Part shown: positions 15,792 to 25,313 of the stretch, in pieces | Layout: every line of letters starts with the position of its first letter | How positions within the stretch are numbered: the stretch's first letter is position 1 | DNA from: Hespellia sp. | GTDB lineage: Bacteria; Bacillota; Clostridia; Lachnospirales; Lachnospiraceae | Reading direction: 5' to 3' | NCBI GenBank assembly: GCA_028689735.1 | Contig: JAQVCP010000007.1 | Span: 20,962 to 84,961 of the forward strand | DNA length: 64,000 bases | Program-made: the position numbers and the translations under genes | Notes under the pieces: generated by a model | Told to the model about the DNA's origin: nothing | The model's input: only the letters and a program-made list of their open reading frames with translations | The model's database searches: none

Positions 15792-16732
15792 TTATCTCTG
15801 CCCCTTATCATAAGGAATTCCCTCCGCCTTCGGTGCTCTGGAATTCTTAGAGAAGATAGCCAGTACCACCAGCGAGATAATATAAGGCAGCATATTGTAA
15901 AGCGTGCTCGGAAGATGAAGTGAGACTAGTAAATCAAATCCTGAATATACGTTAGATAGTGCTCTAAGCAACCCAAACAGCAACGCTGCAAGGGCAATCA
16001 GATTCGGTTTCCACTGACCAAAAATCATAACAGCCAAAGCAAGGAATCCAAAACCAGCCACACCATTTTCAAATTTCCACTCACTGACACCAGCGGTGAT
16101 AATACGATACCTCCAAGACCACCGAGCATTCCGGAAATCAACACACCTGCATAGCGCATTTTGTACACGTTGATTCCCACAGAATCCGCAGCCTGTGGAT
16201 ACTCGCCACAAGCCATCAGACGAAGCCCGAATTTCGTCTTAAAAAGAACAATTCCTGCACAAATAAGTGCTGCCACAGCGAGTAACATAAACCAGCTCAC
16301 TTCAAACTTTCCGATTTTAACAAGAGAGAAGATCTTTTTCTGCTCTATGTACTGAATCGTCGAGGACACATTGCTGGAATCATTTGCCATATTCATTGCC
16401 TTTACAAATACAGTCGCTGCTGCAGTTCCAAGCAAATTCATTGCAGTACCAGCCAGCGTCTGATCAGCCTTAAAGTTAATAGCTGCCACGGCCAGAAGCA
16501 GAGAGTAGAGCAGTCCAAAAATCATACTTCCTATGATAACTGCCAGTAAGAGCACGCCACTTGGAAGATCTTTCATAAATTTCATGACCAGGGCACCGCC
16601 CAGAGCTCCCATAACCATAATTCCTTCCAATCCCAGGTTGATGACACCACTGTGCTCTGAGAAGCATCCACCCAGCGCCACAAGAAACAGCACGGATGCA
16701 TATATGAATGTGTATTGTAATAGCAGAACCAT
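15792..16732 (-). pseudogene. Nucleoside ABC permease 2 (NupC/YufQ-like), split by a 1-nt frameshift near 16100-16107
   Basis: SEHSGVINLGLEGIM and FGLRLMACGEYPQAADSVG in one frame; ITAGVSEW...GFLALAVMIFGQWKP...LPY in another. Confidence 0.85.
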
Positions 16733-16734
16733 AT

Positions 16735-17901
16735 CTACTCGCCTCCTTTCGCTGCACTTGCAGTTACTTTTGTATTCGCTGCAGCATCAGCATTTACATT
16801 TTTTCCAGGTTTATTCTGAATTCGTTTCTTCATACAAAACTTGAAGAACAATACAAAACTACAGAAGTAAATAATAATCGATGAAATCAAATCTGAAATC
16901 TGCGAACAGTAAACCATCTTATCTACATAAGAACCACCACTGGTGATATGCTGGATAAAGAATGCAGAGAACACACCGCCGATTGGATTTAAACCACCGA
17001 GGAACGCAGCTGCAATTCCGTTAAACCCCATTGCCGGAACCGTTGTCTGTGAACAGGACCACTGCTCGATTCCGCTTAAGTACAAAAAGGAAGCTCCAAG
17101 ACCCGCCAGACATCCTGAGATGACCATGGTCAGAATCATATTTCTCTTTTCTTTCATTCCTGCATATTTTGCGGCATTCTTATTAAGACCCGTCGCTTTT
17201 AATTCATATCCAAGCTTTGTCTTTTCCATGATGACAAAAACCAGCACTGCAATCAGAATTGCAAGTGGAATGGCGATCGTCACATAGCGGTTATTAAAAA
17301 ACAGCTTGTCCAGTCCAAGGTTTGGAATCAGTGCTTTCGGGTTATTCGTGCGAAGAGCACTGGTATAAGTCGTACTGGCATCTTTTACGGTAGTCAGCAG
17401 CATATTGACGCTGTAGAGACTGATCCAGTTGAGCATAATGCAGGCAATAACTTCATTTACATTTAAATAAGCCTTCAAAGCTCCTGCGATTCCTCCGAGA
17501 ATTCCGCCACCGATCATGGCCGCCAGCATACACACATACCATGGCATTCCAAATCCAATGGCAAGATACAGGCTGAGACCTGCACCCACTGCGTACTGAC
17601 CGGATGCTCCAATATTGAACAGACCCACTTTATAGGCAAACATAACGGACAGCGTACACATCAGAAGCGGCGCTGTCTTTGCCAGAGTACTTCCGAAATA
17701 TTCCAGGGCAACTGCCGGTCTTGGAAAATAGAGAAAGTTCTGCAGAATGGCAGTGATTGCATCTGTTGCCCCTGCCGGGTTGATAGCAAGTAACACAATA
17801 TATCCCACCAGAAGTCCAAGGAGGATACAGATGATAGAAGCGACCAGGGTCTGGAATCCATCATTTTCCATCAGGGTCTTTTTTTCTTTTGCTGTATTCA
17901 T
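16735..17901 (-). CDS. Nucleoside ABC permease 1 (NupB/YufP-like)
   Basis: GLFNIGASGQY, LNVNEVI, GYELKATGLN, GFNGIAAAFLG. Confidence 0.9.
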   Translation of the reverse strand: MNTAKEKKTLMENDGFQTLVASIICILLGLLVGYIVLLAINPAGATDAITAILQNFLYFPRPAVALEYFGSTLAKTAPLLMCTLSVMFAYKVGLFNIGASGQYAVGAGLSLYLAIGFGMPWYVCMLAAMIGGGILGGIAGALKAYLNVNEVIACIMLNWISLYSVNMLLTTVKDASTTYTSALRTNNPKALIPNLGLDKLFFNNRYVTIAIPLAILIAVLVFVIMEKTKLGYELKATGLNKNAAKYAGMKEKRNMILTMVISGCLAGLGASFLYLSGIEQWSCSQTTVPAMGFNGIAAAFLGGLNPIGGVFSAFFIQHITSGGSYVDKMVYCSQISDLISSIIIYFCSFVLFFKFCMKKRIQNKPGKNVNADAAANTKVTASAAKGGE

Positions 17902-17904
17902 TTT

Positions 17905-19434
17905 CTAAACCTCCTGTCTCTTGGCGCCAGTCATATAAAGGCCAAGTTCTTCTACCGTAATTTCTTCCGGTTTGAATTCTCCAACCAGTTCCCCTTCGTA
18001 CATAACAAGGATTCGATCGGATACGTCCATAACCTCGTCCAGTTCCAGGCTCACCAGAAGCACACCCTTTCCGGCATCTCTCTGAGCAACTAACTGTTTG
18101 TGTATAAATTCAATAGCACCAACGTCGACGCCCCGGATTGGCTGAACCGCAATGAGCAAGGATGGATCCTTGTCAATCTCCCGGGCAATAATTGCCTTCT
18201 GCTGATTTCCTCCGGACATGGCACGGACTGTCGTAATGGCACCCTGACCGGCACGCACATCATATGCTTCAATCAGACGGTCTGCATACTGGCGGATTTC
18301 TTTTTTGCGCAGCATACCGAACTTATCTGTAAAACGTGGCTCGTAATAACGTTCCAGTACCATATTCTGCTCCAGAGAATAATCCAGAACCAGACCATGT
18401 TTGTGACGGTCTTCCGGGATATGACTCATCCCCATAGCAGAACGTTTTCTGATGGATTCTTTTGTAATATCTTTTCCATTCAAATGGATAGTTCCAGCCG
18501 TCAAAGGCTCCAGTCCGGAAAGTCCATACACCAGCTCCGTCTGTCCATTTCCATCAATTCCCGCAATACACACAATCTCCCCTTCTCTTACCTGGAAAGA
18601 CACATCGTGAACTGCGTCTTTCTTTCTCCGACTAGAGGCAACGGAAACATGCTGTACATCCAGCACTGCCGCTCCCGGTCTGGCCGGCTCTTTTTCCACA
18701 CTGAAATTGACATCACGTCCAACCATCATGGCCGAGAGCTTTTCCGGAGTGGTATCTTTTGTATCTACAGTTCCTACGTATTTTCCTTTTCTAAGAACGC
18801 TACACCGATCAGACACTTCCATAATCTCATTCAGCTTATGGGAAATGAACAGGATGCTCTTTCCTTCTTTTGCAAGACCTTTCATGATCTGCATCAATTC
18901 TTCGATCTCCTGTACCGTCAGAACCGCAGTGGGCTCATCGAAAATCAGGATTTCATTATCACGGTAGAGCATCTTTAAGATTTCGGTTCGCTGCTGCATA
19001 CCAACTGTAATGTCCTCGATCAGAGCGTCCGGCTCTACATGAAGGTGGTAGCGCTCAGAGAGCTCCATAACCTTTTTTCTTGCTGCATCTTTTTGAAGCA
19101 GTCCGCTTTTTGTCGGCTCTACGCCAAGAATAATATTATCTAAAACCGAAAAACATTCTACTAATTTAAAATGCTGATGCACCATTCCGATTCCAAGATC
19201 ATTGGCATCATTCGGATTGTTGATTGTGACTTTTTTCCCGTCTTTGTGTATTTCTCCTTCTTCTGGCTGATACAGACCAAACAGAACACTCATCAGTGTA
19301 GATTTTCCAGCGCCATTTTCCCCAAGAAGTGCATGGATTTCGCCCTTTCTTAACTGGAGTGTGATATTGTCATTGGCGACAATACCCGGAAAGCGTTTGG
19401 TGATGTTCAGCATCTCAACGGCATATTCTCCCAT
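17905..19434 (-). CDS. Nucleoside ABC ATP-binding protein with two NBDs (NupA/YufO-like)
   Basis: GENGAGKST, FDEPTAVL, MSGGNQQK. Confidence 0.95.
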   Translation of the reverse strand: MGEYAVEMLNITKRFPGIVANDNITLQLRKGEIHALLGENGAGKSTLMSVLFGLYQPEEGEIHKDGKKVTINNPNDANDLGIGMVHQHFKLVECFSVLDNIILGVEPTKSGLLQKDAARKKVMELSERYHLHVEPDALIEDITVGMQQRTEILKMLYRDNEILIFDEPTAVLTVQEIEELMQIMKGLAKEGKSILFISHKLNEIMEVSDRCSVLRKGKYVGTVDTKDTTPEKLSAMMVGRDVNFSVEKEPARPGAAVLDVQHVSVASSRRKKDAVHDVSFQVREGEIVCIAGIDGNGQTELVYGLSGLEPLTAGTIHLNGKDITKESIRKRSAMGMSHIPEDRHKHGLVLDYSLEQNMVLERYYEPRFTDKFGMLRKKEIRQYADRLIEAYDVRAGQGAITTVRAMSGGNQQKAIIAREIDKDPSLLIAVQPIRGVDVGAIEFIHKQLVAQRDAGKGVLLVSLELDEVMDVSDRILVMYEGELVGEFKPEEITVEELGLYMTGAKRQEV

Positions 19435-19466
19435 TTTGATTTTCCTCCTTCGTTATCCTCTCATCC

Positions 19467-20657
19467 TTACATGATGGTTCCTTCTCTGACATTGACCTGT
19501 ATTGAAACTTCCGGCATCTGCTCCACAGAATCATTGACTGTGATTTCCCCATTGTAAAGACTGTTTACCAGTGCATGATAATCATCCACCGTAAACTTAT
19601 CATTCCACTGTGTCGATTCTTCCGGAAGTCCCACATAATTCAATGACATATCCTCTCCGGAAACCAGTCCAAGACTTTCGATTTTCCCAACATGCTCCTC
19701 CCAGGTATCCGTCCTAATAATCGCATCCAACATAGCATTCACAGTTGCGGTCAGACTCTTCATAGCCGATGTTACCGTCATGCCCTCTCCGTATGCATCG
19801 ATGATGGCTGCCTGGTCATTGTCTACTCCGATGACCTTCCCGCCGGTCTTTGCTGCTGCCTCTGCCGCTGAAGTAAAAATACCGCCTCCACATGCAAATA
19901 CGACTTCTGTTCCGCTGCTGTACCATGTATCCATGGCGGCTGTAATCTCTGTGGAACCATAGAACTGTCCGCCGTAAGCGTACTGGACACTGACCTCATC
20001 AGTGATTCCAAGTTCATTCGCCGCATCATTGATTCCCTGAACAAAACCGTATCCGAATCTCATAACCGCAGGCACTGCCATTCCCCCCAGATATCCAAGA
20101 CTGTGATATCCCATCCGAACGGCTGCATACCCTGCCATATAGCCCGGAAGCTCTTCCTTGTAAACTGCACAATAAGTATTCTCTGTATTATAATAATCTG
20201 CTTCATCATAGGCGTCCGGATTATCGTAATATGCATTTCCAACTGCTGTAGAAATGATATCTCCGGCTGTCATATCCATTACGATGAATTTAACATCCGG
20301 GTACTTAAAGGTGGTTTCAATCAACGTCTCGGCAAAAACATATCCCGCCATTACGATGACATTGTACCCATCCGCCACTGCCACATCTACCATAGCGATA
20401 CGTGCGTAATCTGTGTCTCCGTCCGGTTTCAGATATGTGAAATCCACATCATTTTCTGAACAGTATGCATCACAGGCTTCATAAGTTGTCTGGTTAAAAG
20501 ACTGATCTGTAATATCTGCAGAGTCTGTAATCATTGCAACACGATACTTTGAGCTTCCTTTATCCTCCGTTCTCCCTGACCTGGATCCGCAGGCCGTCAG
20601 CGAAAACAGCATGACAACAGCCAGCAGAGCAGACAAGGCTCTCTTTGTCTTTTTCAT
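19467..20657 (-). CDS. BMP family nucleoside-binding lipoprotein
   Basis: Lipobox LTACG; DQSFNQ, VVFACGG, VIGVDNDQ, TSAMK. Confidence 0.9.
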   Translation of the reverse strand: MKKTKRALSALLAVVMLFSLTACGSRSGRTEDKGSSKYRVAMITDSADITDQSFNQTTYEACDAYCSENDVDFTYLKPDGDTDYARIAMVDVAVADGYNVIVMAGYVFAETLIETTFKYPDVKFIVMDMTAGDIISTAVGNAYYDNPDAYDEADYYNTENTYCAVYKEELPGYMAGYAAVRMGYHSLGYLGGMAVPAVMRFGYGFVQGINDAANELGITDEVSVQYAYGGQFYGSTEITAAMDTWYSSGTEVVFACGGGIFTSAAEAAAKTGGKVIGVDNDQAAIIDAYGEGMTVTSAMKSLTATVNAMLDAIIRTDTWEEHVGKIESLGLVSGEDMSLNYVGLPEESTQWNDKFTVDDYHALVNSLYNGEITVNDSVEQMPEVSIQVNVREGTIM

Positions 20658-20750: not shown

Positions 20751-21942
20751 TTATTTCAGCGCGTCTAAAATGGATGTTCCAATTGTTCCTTCTGGCATCT
20801 CCACCTCGAAATTCTCAGCAATGGTTGCACCGATGACAGCAAAGGTATCCTGCTCCGGCAGCATACCTTCACCCTTCATGGATTTGGAATACGCAAGAAA
20901 CGGCACCTTTTCTCTAGTGTGGTCCGTTCCGGAATAAGTCGGATCATTTCCATGGTCTGCAGTGATTATCAGCAGATCCTCTTCTTCCAAATGCTCCACT
21001 AAAATTCCCAATTTGACATCGAACTTTTCAATCTCTTCTGCATAGCCAGCCGGATTTCTTCTGTGTCCCCATTTTGCATCAAAGTCAACCAGATTGACAA
21101 AACAAAGTCCGGTAAAGTCCGTCTTTGTCTCTTCAATGGTCTGCTCCATTCCATGAACAGAAGAATCCGAATGCAGTGCTTTGGTTATTCCTTCCCCGAC
21201 AAAAATATCATTGATTTTTCCAATAGAAATGACATCATATCCTTTGTCTTTGAGTACATTCAGCACTGTCTGACCGAACGGCTTCAGGGCATAGTCGTGA
21301 CGGTTACTTGTTCGCACAAATTCACCTTTTTTTCCTGCCAACATATGGGCGGGCAATGACTCTTCCAACCTTCCACTCTTCTCTCAACGTCAGCTCCCTT
21401 GCGATCTCACAGCAGCGATATAATTCTTCCAGCCCAAAAGTCTCTTCATTTCCACAAATCTGAAGCACGGAATCTGCTGAAGTATAAACAATCATTTTCC
21501 CGGTTGCTATTTCTTCTTCCGCCAGCTCATCTAAAATCTCCGTTCCACTGGAACTCTTGTTTCCAATAATCTTATGTCCCGTTCTCTTCTCCAGCTCTTC
21601 GATGAGTTCCGAAGGAAATCCATGATCGGTAAACGTCTGAAATGGTGTCTTCGTCCCAAGTCCCATCATCTCCCAATGTCCCGTCATCGTATCTTTTCCA
21701 TTGCTGGTCTCTCTTAGTGCCGCCTGATATCCCAGAGGTTTTTCTACTGGGGCAACCTGTTTTAATTTGGCCAGATTGGCCATTCCAAGCTTTTGAAGAT
21801 TCGGAATCTTGAAGATTTCGACTGACTCCGAAATGTGTTTCAGTGTATTGACACCCACATCACCAAATTTTTCTGAATCCGGCATTGCGCCGATTCCAAG
21901 AGAATCCATTACCACTACAAAAATTCTTTTATATCGTTTCAT
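20751..21942 (-). pseudogene. deoB: Phosphopentomutase, split by a +1 frameshift in an A7 run (21327-21333)
   Basis: [27 protein letters not shown] then frame change; [32 protein letters not shown] in the second frame. Confidence 0.9.
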
Positions 21943-21983
21943 ACTTTCCATCTCCACATCCTGACATATGGTACCTTTCTTTA

Positions 21984-22403
21984 TTATGCTAAATTTCCCG
22001 GTCCAAATCCCATCGGCATCAAAGCTGCTAATGTATAAACCAGATAATCTTCTGTACTTTTTGCCAGCAGGATTTCAAACCCCTCAGGATCACAGAATTC
22101 CATCATCACCTGCCTGCAGACCCCGCAAGGGGGTGCAAACTCGCTCAGCACTCCATCCTGACCACCTACGATACAAATCGCTTCAAACTCTGTCACCCCT
22201 TCACTGACTGCCTTGAAAAATGCAGTGCGTTCTGCACAGTTTGTCGGTGTATAGGCCGCATTTTCAATGTTGCATCCAGTAAATATGGTCCCGTTCTTTG
22301 CTAAAAGTGCTGCGCCTACTTTGAAGTTTGAGTAAGGTGTGTAAGAAAAATCCAACTGTTCTATTGCCATCTTAATCAACATTTTTCTTTTTTCTGAATC
22401 CAT
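21984..22403 (-). CDS. cdd: Cytidine deaminase
   Basis: [33 protein letters not shown]. Confidence 0.95.
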
Positions 22404-22459: not shown

Positions 22460-23239
22460 CTATTTCTTTTCTTTATCCGCTTTGATTAGATTTCTAATTC
22501 CTTGTACCGCCACACGGATCGCCATATCAGTATCATGCACAATCGGATTTTCCAGCCCGGCCTTTTCGCGTTCCTGATTGGCGAGAACTAAAAAGCAGGA
22601 TCCCACTCTGACTCCCAGGCTGCTGCCTACGATAAAGAGTGCTGCCGATTCCATCTCAGACGCGAGACATCCAAGTCTTTTCCACGCCTCCCATTTATTC
22701 ATCAGTTCATAGCTGACTGGCTTCGTCTCCGGTGAATGCTGCCCGTAAAATGCATCCTTGCACTGAACAACACCTACATGATAAGGCTGATTCATCTCTT
22801 TCGCCGCTGTGATCATAGAGTTCATAACATCCACATCCGGTACTGCCGGAAACTCAATCGGTGCATATTCTTTGCTGGTTCCTTCCATGCGGATGGCTCC
22901 ATTTGCAATGACTACATCACCGCTCTCTACATTCAACTGCATCCCGCCACAGGTTCCGATACGGATAAATGTATCCGCTCCGGCATTCACCAGTTCTTCC
23001 ATTGCGATAGAAGCCGATGGACCGCCGATTCCGGTGGATGTAACACTGACTTTCTCTCCGTCAAGGTATCCTGTGTACGTTACATATTCTCTGCTGTCTG
23101 CAACGAACTTTGCATCGTCAAAATATTTCGCTATTTTTTCACAGCGTTTTGGATCTCCCGGCATAATTACGTAACGTCCTACGTCACCTTTTCCCACTTG
23201 AATGTGATACTGCTTGCTTGCGTCTTCTGAATAGTTCAT
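22460..23239 (-). CDS. udp: Uridine phosphorylase
   Basis: [33 protein letters not shown]. Confidence 0.95.
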
Positions 23240-23444
23240 ATATAATTCTCCTTTTCTTTTCATAATGTATTTTCGGTTTCTATATAATTGATTCCCAATA
23301 TCTCAACCGCGTTAACGATATTATATAAACAAATCGATTGCGAAAAAAGGACTCCAGTGTCAATTTACAAAAAAAGATGAGTTTTTTTCTCTCACCTTTT
23401 TTTAAGACTGTATCTTTCTTTTCCCAATCGGGGGCTGGAGTCCC

Positions 23445-24833
23445 TTAATTGCGATCGATCAATTCGGATACAATGATATTCAATTCTTCATATTGTTCCT
23501 GAGACATTACAAAACGACTTCCTTCTCTCGTAATCAGTCCGTTATCAGCCAGCTTTTTTAGTGAGCGGTCAATGGTCTTAACACTAAGTCCTGTTGAATC
23601 CGCAAGCTCCTGTCTGGAACGTCGAAGCTCCAGCTTTCCATTTTTCTGATATTTGCTGTATGCGTCTACCAGATACAGCGTAAATCGATTGGACCCCTGT
23701 AAAAAGAGGTAAGCTCTCCCCCTCTTGCTCTGTTCCATCAGATATCTCGCGATATTCTTTGTCTCAAGCTTCAGCGCCCTAATGTCTCTTCCCATCCACT
23801 GAGAAAATGTGCTGCGCGGAATCTTGGCAATGGTACATGGAGTAATGGTCTCCAGAGTTGTCTGATACAGCTCCGTTCCCTGTACAACTTCCATCCCACC
23901 AAATGCAAAAACATCTTCAAACTGCATAAAGTCAAAGACAATTCCATAAATACGATAGTCCACTGCTTTTACCGAGCCCTTTCCTACCATATAAATCATA
24001 TTTGCAGGTTCCCCTTCCCGGATGAATACTGTATTTTTTCCATACTCCTGTACCTGAATTGCCGAAAGAAGCCAGTCCGGAGCGGACAAAAAGTATTCTT
24101 CAAACTGCTGGCGTCTCTCCTCATCAATCTCATCCAGAAACGGAAGATATGGAAGAAGCCGCTGATGCACAGCGTCACTGGTTCCCGTCCGGGTTTCTTC
24201 GTTTTCCGCTGCCTGTTTTTTTTTCTCCTCAAGAATACTTTGCATCTTGCAGATCACAATGTCTGCCGCCACCCGGTTCTTTCCACTATTTACAACAATA
24301 TCCGCCATTGCACGGGTTGGCTGCACATAGAGATTATGCATGGGCTTAACCGTTGTCAGGTATTGCTCCATAATATTCTCCATATCTCTTCCACGTTCCT
24401 TTGTATCTCTGGCAATCCGGCGAAGAATACGCTCATCTGCATCTGCATCTACAAAAATCTTGATATCAAGCATATCACGCACCCGCTCATCCACCAGAAG
24501 TAAAATCCCCTCCACTAAAATGATAGGACTTGGTTCTACACATACGGTCTTTTCTGAGCGGTTATGCTGGCTGTAATCATAGACAGGGCCATCAATCGCA
24601 TGTCCCTCCTTTAACAGCTTCAAGTGCTCCAGCAGAAGATTCGTCTCCAGAGAATCCGGGTGATCATAATTCACCTTCTGTCTCACCTCAAATGGTATAT
24701 CTTCCTGCTTCCGATAATAATTATCATAATAAATCACCGCGACCTCATCGCCAAACTGCTTTTTCAATCTCTTTGTAAATGTAGATTTCCCAGAACCGGT
24801 TCCACCGGCAATTCCAATAATTATGCTCTCCAT
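23445..24833 (-). CDS. Uridine kinase fused to a Crp/Fnr-family cNMP-binding and HTH domain
   Basis: N-half GGTGSGKST, NYDHPDS, EGIL, RRIARD, QYLTTVKPMH; C-half VFIREGE, GKGSVKA, SRQELADSTGLSVKTIDRSLKKL. Confidence 0.9.
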   Translation of the reverse strand: MESIIIGIAGGTGSGKSTFTKRLKKQFGDEVAVIYYDNYYRKQEDIPFEVRQKVNYDHPDSLETNLLLEHLKLLKEGHAIDGPVYDYSQHNRSEKTVCVEPSPIILVEGILLLVDERVRDMLDIKIFVDADADERILRRIARDTKERGRDMENIMEQYLTTVKPMHNLYVQPTRAMADIVVNSGKNRVAADIVICKMQSILEEKKKQAAENEETRTGTSDAVHQRLLPYLPFLDEIDEERRQQFEEYFLSAPDWLLSAIQVQEYGKNTVFIREGEPANMIYMVGKGSVKAVDYRIYGIVFDFMQFEDVFAFGGMEVVQGTELYQTTLETITPCTIAKIPRSTFSQWMGRDIRALKLETKNIARYLMEQSKRGRAYLFLQGSNRFTLYLVDAYSKYQKNGKLELRRSRQELADSTGLSVKTIDRSLKKLADNGLITREGSRFVMSQEQYEELNIIVSELIDRN

Positions 24834-24995
24834 CTCTCATTCCTTCTCTTACTCATCTGCTTCAATGATCTTCTTACATGTATTTTATCCATATGAACAA
24901 AATTTTCTCTCATTTGGATAAATATTTGTGATAGAACCCTCTTGTTTTTATAGCCTTCTAAAGATTAGTACCCCAACTACCTGTACATACTTGAA

Positions 24996-25313
24996 TTATA
25001 TTCTATTATCTCTATAATTACAATATAAGCGTTCGTAGCTCTGCAATGCAATCGGCTTCCTGCAAAAATCTTTCATACCCGTTTCCTCTTCAGTGCCAGA
25101 ATAAATGCCTGATAAACAATCAATATTAAGGTGCGCATTATACACACATACCCCTGGCTCATGTTCATAGAGACATATTCGCTTTATATCGAAATCAAAG
25201 CAGAGATGCCCTGTCTTACGACGGGGCATCTGATGTAGCTTCCTTTGTTTTTTGGAGGGACACCTTATAATCCAATTCAAAACGTAAATGCAGCAAAAGC
25301 CAAATTTTTTCAA
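24996..25313 (-). CDS. Possible Cys-rich hypothetical protein
   Basis: ORF follows the acidic gene on the same strand; weak RBS, no recognisable motif. Confidence 0.3.
   Translation of the reverse strand: MKKFGFCCIYVLNWIIRCPSKKQRKLHQMPRRKTGHLCFDFDIKRICLYEHEPGVCVYNAHLNIDCLSGIYSGTEEETGMKDFCRKPIALQSYERLYCNYRDNRI

Follow-up and report, generated by a model that had tools for sequence, protein, structure and literature searches.

In NadR, BirA and PutA a DNA-binding domain and an enzyme are combined in one polypeptide. NadR consists of a helix-turn-helix (HTH) domain, an NMN adenylyltransferase and a ribosylnicotinamide kinase; the latter is a P-loop nucleoside kinase whose fold belongs to the same broad class as that of uridine kinase (Udk). 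Pyrimidine genes of Firmicutes are regulated by PyrR, a sensor and attenuator of the UPRTase fold that is a pyrimidine salvage-type protein as well, and genes for nucleoside use, i.e., udp, cdd, the deo genes and BMP-type nup ABC transporters, are targets of CytR (LacI family), DeoR and NupR (GntR family). The class II activators FNR and CRP of Escherichia coli share a cNMP-binding-like barrel and a C-terminal winged HTH (wHTH), and one Crp/Fnr-family regulator of this species, YeiL, is encoded among nucleoside uptake and hydrolysis genes in the nupX-rihB-yeiL cassette.

Here we analyze a stretch of 64,000 nucleotides (the window) from Hespellia sp., a member of the Lachnospiraceae, in which a uridine kinase and a Crp/Fnr-type regulator share one reading frame upstream of a nucleoside operon. 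The window lies on contig C161 of an assembly of 174 contigs (3.69 Mb, 97% complete). Our analysis suggests that the gene is probably a real, recent and lineage-specific in-frame fusion of two whole genes, whose modules probably still work independently, and that it was not selected as a sensor.

A uridine kinase and a Crp/Fnr-type regulator in one reading frame

The fused gene is an uninterrupted frame of 462 aa on the minus strand (23445..24833), with no internal stops in the ORF listing. It consists of an intact Udk module (aa 1–207, 24213..24833), a 14-aa linker, QAAENEETRTGTSDA (24171..24212), and a complete Crp/Fnr-type regulator (aa 222–462, 23445..24170), all read from the minus strand. 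Pfam assigns aa 5–186 to the PRK/uridine kinase family (PF00485, E 7e-43), aa 262–349 to cNMP_binding (PF00027, E 4e-11, 43.2 bits against a cut-off of 27.5) and aa 387–441 to HTH_Crp_2 (PF13545, E 4e-8, 33.6 bits against a cut-off of 27). The second half thus has the architecture of the Crp/Fnr family, an N-terminal cNMP-binding-like beta-barrel (23787-24050) followed by a C-terminal Crp-type wHTH (23511-23675). Over aa 2–204 the protein exceeds the curated cut-offs of both uridine-kinase equivalogs of NCBIfam (TIGR00235, 269.6 against 180 bits; NF004018, 244.9 against 220.3 bits), and solved Udk/UCK2 structures can be aligned with the kinase half over its full length (Thermus thermophilus Udk, E 7e-58; human UCK2, E 1e-44). 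All Udk motifs are kept and agree with the consensus of 30 Udk relatives: the P-loop GIAGGTGSGKST, NYDHPD, the His in YSQHNRS, the lid RRIxRD..RGR (here RRIARD) and QYLTTVKP. The intact motifs in both modules would fit a protein under selection, and are neutral as to whether the fusion itself is adaptive.

The ORF list, Pfam and NCBIfam thereby bear out what a preliminary description of this DNA had read from the letters, namely a single 462-aa frame with a Udk domain (P-loop, NYDHP, RRIARD), a cNMP barrel and a Crp HTH, and its position directly upstream of udp-cdd-deoB-BMP-ABC is equally confirmed, since 181 nt separate the gene from this operon and all genes lie on the same strand. No other udk is present in the genome. 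The public NCBI gene call covers only 266 aa, starting at Met197 (aa 197–462), so that the kinase half is publicly unannotated and the fusion invisible to name searches; the protein collection accordingly holds two versions of the product, the 266-aa NCBI call and a 462-aa call on a Logan contig (run SRR22315505). Upstream of the fused gene we find a promoter-like sequence that matches the consensus, TTGTAA-17-TATAAT (24995..25023, minus strand). Between this site and the start codon, the leader contains a 13-nt inverted repeat (TTTATCCATATGA / TCATTTGGATAAA, 24884-24922); the leader as a whole shows no unusual RNA structure.

The join lies at the native ends of both proteins

Both modules end where their standalone counterparts do. 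Udk relatives terminate at positions equivalent to aa 204–207 of the fusion, and standalone regulators start with MxxxYLxxxLPFL(N/K)EI, with Met1 12 residues before the L(N/K/D)EI motif. In alignment with these standalone clade members, an in-frame GTG of the fused gene (Val222, 24168..24170, minus strand) lies 11 residues before the LxEI motif, i.e., within one residue of the native Met1. Thus, the protein is a whole Udk, a 14-residue linker and a whole regulator. The linker is probably the former intergenic spacer or an out-of-frame Udk tail.

A run of nine A residues (A9; 24216..24224, sense on the minus strand) encodes Lys204–206 at the native Udk C-terminus, which makes it a candidate site both of the fusing one-base event and of slippage. 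Adding one A would bring into frame a TGA of the +1 frame (24175-24177), at which Udk would stop after 219 aa, 4 nt before the GTG. A/T runs of at least nine are so rare in the 3.69-Mb genome (37 in total, eight of them sense-strand A9 runs inside long ORFs) that the position of this one at the join is not accidental. The simplest origin of the fusion is therefore a one-base change at the former boundary of two neighboring genes, such as the shortening of an A10 run by one A, whereby the TGA before the GTG start of the regulator would have been removed. An equally small alternative is the loss of an in-frame stop, e.g., at Gln207.

The join is reproduced in a separate assembly

A Logan contig of 9149 nt (SRR22315505) is 100% identical to window positions 32364-23216 across the join, A run included, and its product has the same 462 aa. 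Window positions 20687-13156 are matched at 100% identity by a second Logan contig. These contigs possibly derive from the same reads as the assembly and hence control for the assembler, not for the sequencing chemistry. Since the separate k-mer assembly spans the join identically, a chimera made by the assembler is ruled out.

Frameshifts across the genome were assessed by a homology-based test against the proteins of relatives, which replaced screens by overlapping open frames and Shine-Dalgarno rules because these were too noisy. None of the approximately 100 other genes of the genome that could be compared in this way is split across frames, indicating that the data are not generally indel-prone. 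The homopolymer frameshift candidates from the genome-wide screen all turned out to be ordinary gene junctions (5/5).

No other searched genome carries the fusion

A phmmer search with the whole protein against 1.84 billion representatives returned matches that each cover one half only among the best 150, either aa 1 to ∼207 or aa 226 to ∼461; the checked proteins among those with two matched stretches consist of Udk alone or of duplicated Udk. The fused form is absent from all 61 relatives compared. A genome search, used for the count of genera because a related-locus scan of genome contigs with the regulator half had given one locus, detected this half in 34 of the family's 401 genera, where the open frame always measures 241–304 aa (typically a gene of ∼245 aa); a frame of 463 occurs in the present genome only. 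From the kinase side, 80 metagenome loci with the closest Udk relatives (at most 68% identity) match aa 1 to ∼210 only and have no regulator nearby, and proteins of 254–808 aa found with the regulator half carry no PRK domain. These searches target near Udk and Crp members, and fusions of much more distant members would escape them.

The domain-architecture search that the preliminary description had proposed thus yields no second Udk-Crp fusion, and the conservation among relatives that would be expected of a trigger enzyme is not seen. Separate udk and crp genes in relatives had been named there beforehand as the outcome that would speak against a coupled sensor, and separate genes are what we find (34 genera, 80 metagenome loci). 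In the suggested comparison of gene neighborhoods, the standalone regulator is associated with nucleoside genes in 24 of 24 loci, and udk lies directly upstream of the regulator gene in no relative sampled. The nearest gene order, ...permease-x-crp-x-udk, occurs in one genus, and four metagenome loci have the order BMP-ABC-permease-permease-udk, so that both genes belong to the gene pool of nucleoside operons. The immediate two-gene ancestor, with udk next to crp, is therefore a presumed one, which counts against the preferred reading.

Other unusual gene calls were seen in both families. Close Udk relatives are found in further long gene calls (P0023, P0027, P0029–P0031, P0033, P0034, P0093 and P0101): proteins of ∼568 aa from several clusters join an ABC-type membrane domain to Udk, one call has Udk and pyrimidine-nucleoside phosphorylase domains, and one has Udk and PfkB. 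Either Udk often takes part in fusions or such calls are artefacts of gene calling. In the regulator clade there are two singletons, P0264 with an internal 40-aa duplication and P0267, whose sensor barrel is joined to a DUF5702 segment on a scaffold; one-off rearranged calls are thus not rare for this family in metagenome data.

Standalone regulators of this clade accompany nucleoside operons

In all 24 loci (24/24) the standalone homologues adjoin udp, cdd, deoB and/or a BMP-type ABC transporter. Promoters of the clade share a palindrome, AAGGAC-N4-GTCCTT with A/T-rich flanks, with 15 matches in 14 loci at no more than one mismatch compared to 0.9 in shuffled sequence. In most loci a −10-like hexamer (TAATAT, TAAGAT, TATAAT and similar) starts exactly 21 nt after the 16-mer. 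This spacing places the center of the box at −41.5, the class II position of Crp/Fnr activators.

Several features set the clade apart from the best-known members of the family. The C-terminal half of the fusion aligns with E. coli CAP over aa 253–442, and the CAP residues that contact cAMP (E72, R82 and S83) are replaced, with F/G and L-Y at these positions. With the NCBIfam CRP equivalog the protein reaches 55 bits against a cut-off of 266, which places it outside CRP proper. The recognition helix reads VKTIDR where CAP has RETVGR. Judged by these residues, a ligand other than cAMP and a different half-site would fit the clade best. The protein does not look like an oxygen sensor of the FNR type either, as the regulator half has a single Cys (TPCT) and the clade N-termini (MxxxYLxxxLPFL) are without a Cys cluster. 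Taken together with the gene neighborhoods, the regulators would be nucleoside-responsive class II activators. Neither Udk-Crp fusions nor Crp-family regulators of nucleoside genes in Clostridia came up in a full-text search of the literature, and the clade is apparently undescribed.

The fused copy keeps the clade recognition helix GLSVKTIDRSLKK and the family-conserved residues; of 64 highly conserved positions, five show real deviations, a number usual within the clade. No relative is more than 55% identical to this copy, its terminal branch is fairly long (0.72 compared to a median of 0.29), and it does not group with the regulators of those operons whose enzymes are 80–85% identical to the enzymes in the window.

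Two further observations concern relatives. In G140 and G348, two AAGGAC-N4-GTCCTT-like boxes lie 21–23 bp apart (L073, 14542-14578; L074, 17751-17789), the second one downstream of the −41.5 box and ahead of the −10 hexamer. This layout hints at activation combined with repression. The closest relative of the regulator half (55% identity; L029, 8001-8707, Clostridia bacterium UC5.1-1D2) is broken by stops or frameshifts and the neighboring cdd matches in two pieces, so either this assembly seems to be indel-rich or its genes seem to be decaying as well.

The operon downstream of the fused gene and its control region show signs of erosion

The udp promoter in the window keeps the layout of the clade in a weakened form. 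A candidate operator, TGACAC-TGGA-GTCCTT (WIN_B, 23347..23362, minus strand), is centered at −41.5, and the −10 hexamer TATAAT (23320..23325, minus strand) follows exactly 21 nt after it, as in relatives; the promoter-distal half-site is TGACAC, not AAGGAC. A second operator-like sequence that is degenerate in one half, AGGGAC-TCCA-GCCCCC (WIN_A, 23430..23445, minus strand), abuts the stop codon of the fused gene, with its center at approximately −124.5 and 83 bp from that of WIN_B. Scored with a position weight matrix, these two sites reach 11.4 and 9.7, and the best site genome-wide (16.1) stays below the weakest training site (17.7). No pattern match in this genome has both GGAC/GTCC cores intact.

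A terminator-like hairpin with A/T runs (23369..23403, minus strand) follows the fused gene. It is enclosed by a 25-nt inverted repeat (23333-23357 / 23435-23459, spanning 23333..23459, minus strand; RNA fold z = −5.4), which is unique in the genome and whose inner ends form half-sites of WIN_A and WIN_B. The outer arm of this repeat overlaps the last codons of the fused gene. The arrangement could be a nested or double terminator; alternatively, the operator may have been split by an inverted duplication of which the repeat is the remnant. The sequences that the preliminary description had picked out upstream of udp, CAAATCGATTGC at 23330-23341 and GTTAAC at 23311-23316, are present. Its suggestion that CAAATCGATTGC is a LacI-like operator does not hold up: related promoters do not conserve this element, which occupies the spacer that separates the −41.5 box from the −10 hexamer and forms part of the local 25-nt repeat. 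Rfam searches gave no match at gathering thresholds in the window and chance-level matches only around the gene, and no PyrR-type element was found.

The operon itself begins with udp for uridine phosphorylase (22460..23263, minus strand, with the likely true start at the ATG at 23239) and cdd for cytidine deaminase (21984..22403, minus strand), as seen in the ORF list and in related loci. Next is deoB for phosphopentomutase (20751..21957, minus strand), which is frameshifted by one extra A in an A7 run (21327-21333). Genes for the BMP lipoprotein, an ABC ATPase and two permeases (15792..20657, minus strand) complete it; the second permease gene (15792-16732) is frameshifted by one base missing near 16100-16103, also in the second Logan contig. 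For deoB, exact look-ups of the cdd product and of the deoB fragments returned no matching Logan contig. The operon tail of close relatives, consisting of one gene, then crp, then more genes, is absent here and unrelated genes are found in its place. Together, the degenerate box, the frameshifts in deoB and the permease gene and the missing tail point to an eroding locus, and the event that fused udk to the regulator fits the same class of one-base lesions.

Discussion

Could the fusion be a sequencing error? The organism would then have an A10 run and two tightly coupled genes, udk (219 aa, ending with the TGA) and crp (GTG start, 241 aa), which a one-base undercall merged in the consensus. 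The position of the join on one of the few long A/T runs of the genome argues for this, as do the TGA that an extra A brings in frame 4 nt before a GTG at the family's native start, the two further one-base indels of the same operon, one of them in an A7 run, and the fact that no other genome searched has the fusion. However, the Logan assembly is identical over 9.1 kb including the A run, the permease frameshift is likewise reproduced in another Logan contig, none of the other comparable genes is frameshifted, and the GTG has no good Shine-Dalgarno sequence upstream. We therefore regard such an artefact as unlikely, though it has to be reckoned with. The same A9 run, on the sense strand exactly at the boundary, and the TGA-N4-GTG in the +1 frame might also allow dual expression, in which RNA polymerase slips so that A10 transcripts yield a separate Udk, and a separate regulator by coupled re-initiation at the GTG, whereas A9 transcripts yield the fusion. 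Slippage on runs of about nine A/T is reportedly well established in bacteria. Here the ribosome binding site before the GTG is weak, there is no conservation that would argue for selection, and we consider this mechanism, which is compatible with the other explanations, improbable.

The preliminary description had proposed an evolved one-component pyrimidine sensor, whose Crp DNA-binding domain would respond to substrate or UTP/CTP bound by the kinase domain. One part of this proposal is supported: judged from the neighborhoods of its standalone relatives in 24 of 24 loci and from their palindrome at −41.5, the C-terminal half is a regulator of the Crp/Fnr type that serves nucleoside catabolism. 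The trigger-enzyme part, that the kinase reports to the HTH, finds no support. Both modules are intact, both families recur in nucleoside operons (the four metagenome loci with BMP-ABC-permease-udk and the genus with crp-x-udk), the fused gene lies directly upstream of the operon to be controlled, and it contains the only udk of the genome. Yet our searches found the architecture conserved nowhere, the linker resembles spacer sequence that is now translated, and both the target operator, which is degraded, and the operon, with two broken genes, speak against it; moreover, no new sensor is needed, as the sensor barrel of the regulator half is complete and its N-terminus is the native one. Kinase-controlled DNA binding is therefore very improbable. 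A functional fusion of another kind would make use of the oligomeric state of the enzyme. Udk domains are normally tetrameric, and such tetramers could hold two Crp dimers and bridge both half-degenerate boxes, whose centers at about −41.5 and −124.5 are separated by 83 bp, i.e., approximately eight helical turns, with looping compensating for the weak sites. Activation could then vary with the nucleotide bound to the kinase (feedback by UTP/CTP), and the proportions of fused and separate protein might further be set by slippage at the A9 run. Bridging together with looping and dependence on the kinase state is, as a joint reading, very unlikely.

We favor a real fusion without new function, in which a udk and a gene for a Crp/Fnr-family activator, a separate protein of ∼245 aa in other Lachnospiraceae, were probably joined by a single small mutation. 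The regulator module would most likely still work as its relatives do: a dimer bound to the AAGGAC-N4-GTCCTT-type box, centered at −41.5 in the udp promoter, would activate transcription on sensing a ligand other than cAMP, which is probably a nucleoside or nucleoside derivative. As for Udk, this module would most likely still be an independent kinase. As the locus is eroding, with a half-degenerate box, no canonical box in the genome and two frameshifts, the fusion is best read as one more small lesion, neutral or mildly harmful. Nothing indicates that signaling between kinase and regulator has evolved.

The fusion is thus most likely an evolutionary accident, possibly an error, and gives no evidence for a new class of kinase-coupled pyrimidine sensors. 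If real, it is a natural experiment on whether a class II activator tolerates a bulky N-terminal enzyme. The more useful by-product is the regulator clade, apparently undescribed, which is present in ∼8% of the sampled Lachnospiraceae genera and dedicated to nucleoside scavenging operons. With its candidate operator at the class II position and a predicted non-cAMP ligand, it represents a directly testable regulator for nucleoside use in gut anaerobes.

The fusions in NadR, BirA and PutA are conserved in a wide range of taxa, with demonstrated coupling, whereas Udk-Crp is a singleton with the opposite domain order and no sign of coupling. PyrR differs in being an RNA-binding protein of wide distribution, in which a single domain serves both roles. 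Among Crp/Fnr proteins, the clade shares the barrel and wHTH of the E. coli class II activators and, like FNR, a box of the 5-N4-5 type, in this case centered at −41.5. Its half-site is GGAC in contrast to the GTGA or TTGAT of CRP/FNR-type activators, it conserves neither the cAMP contacts of CAP nor the N-terminal Cys cluster of FNR, and the fused copy is unlike both in carrying 221 N-terminal residues of Udk and linker. YeiL provides a conceptual precedent for a Crp/Fnr protein in a nucleoside cassette, although it is not fused to an enzyme; the best 25 NCBIfam models for our protein include CRP, FixK and FtrB and no YeiL model. Finally, CytR, DeoR and NupR act on the same kinds of target genes, and in contrast to these repressors from other protein families, the clade described here apparently consists of activators, as suggested by the −41.5 geometry of its boxes.
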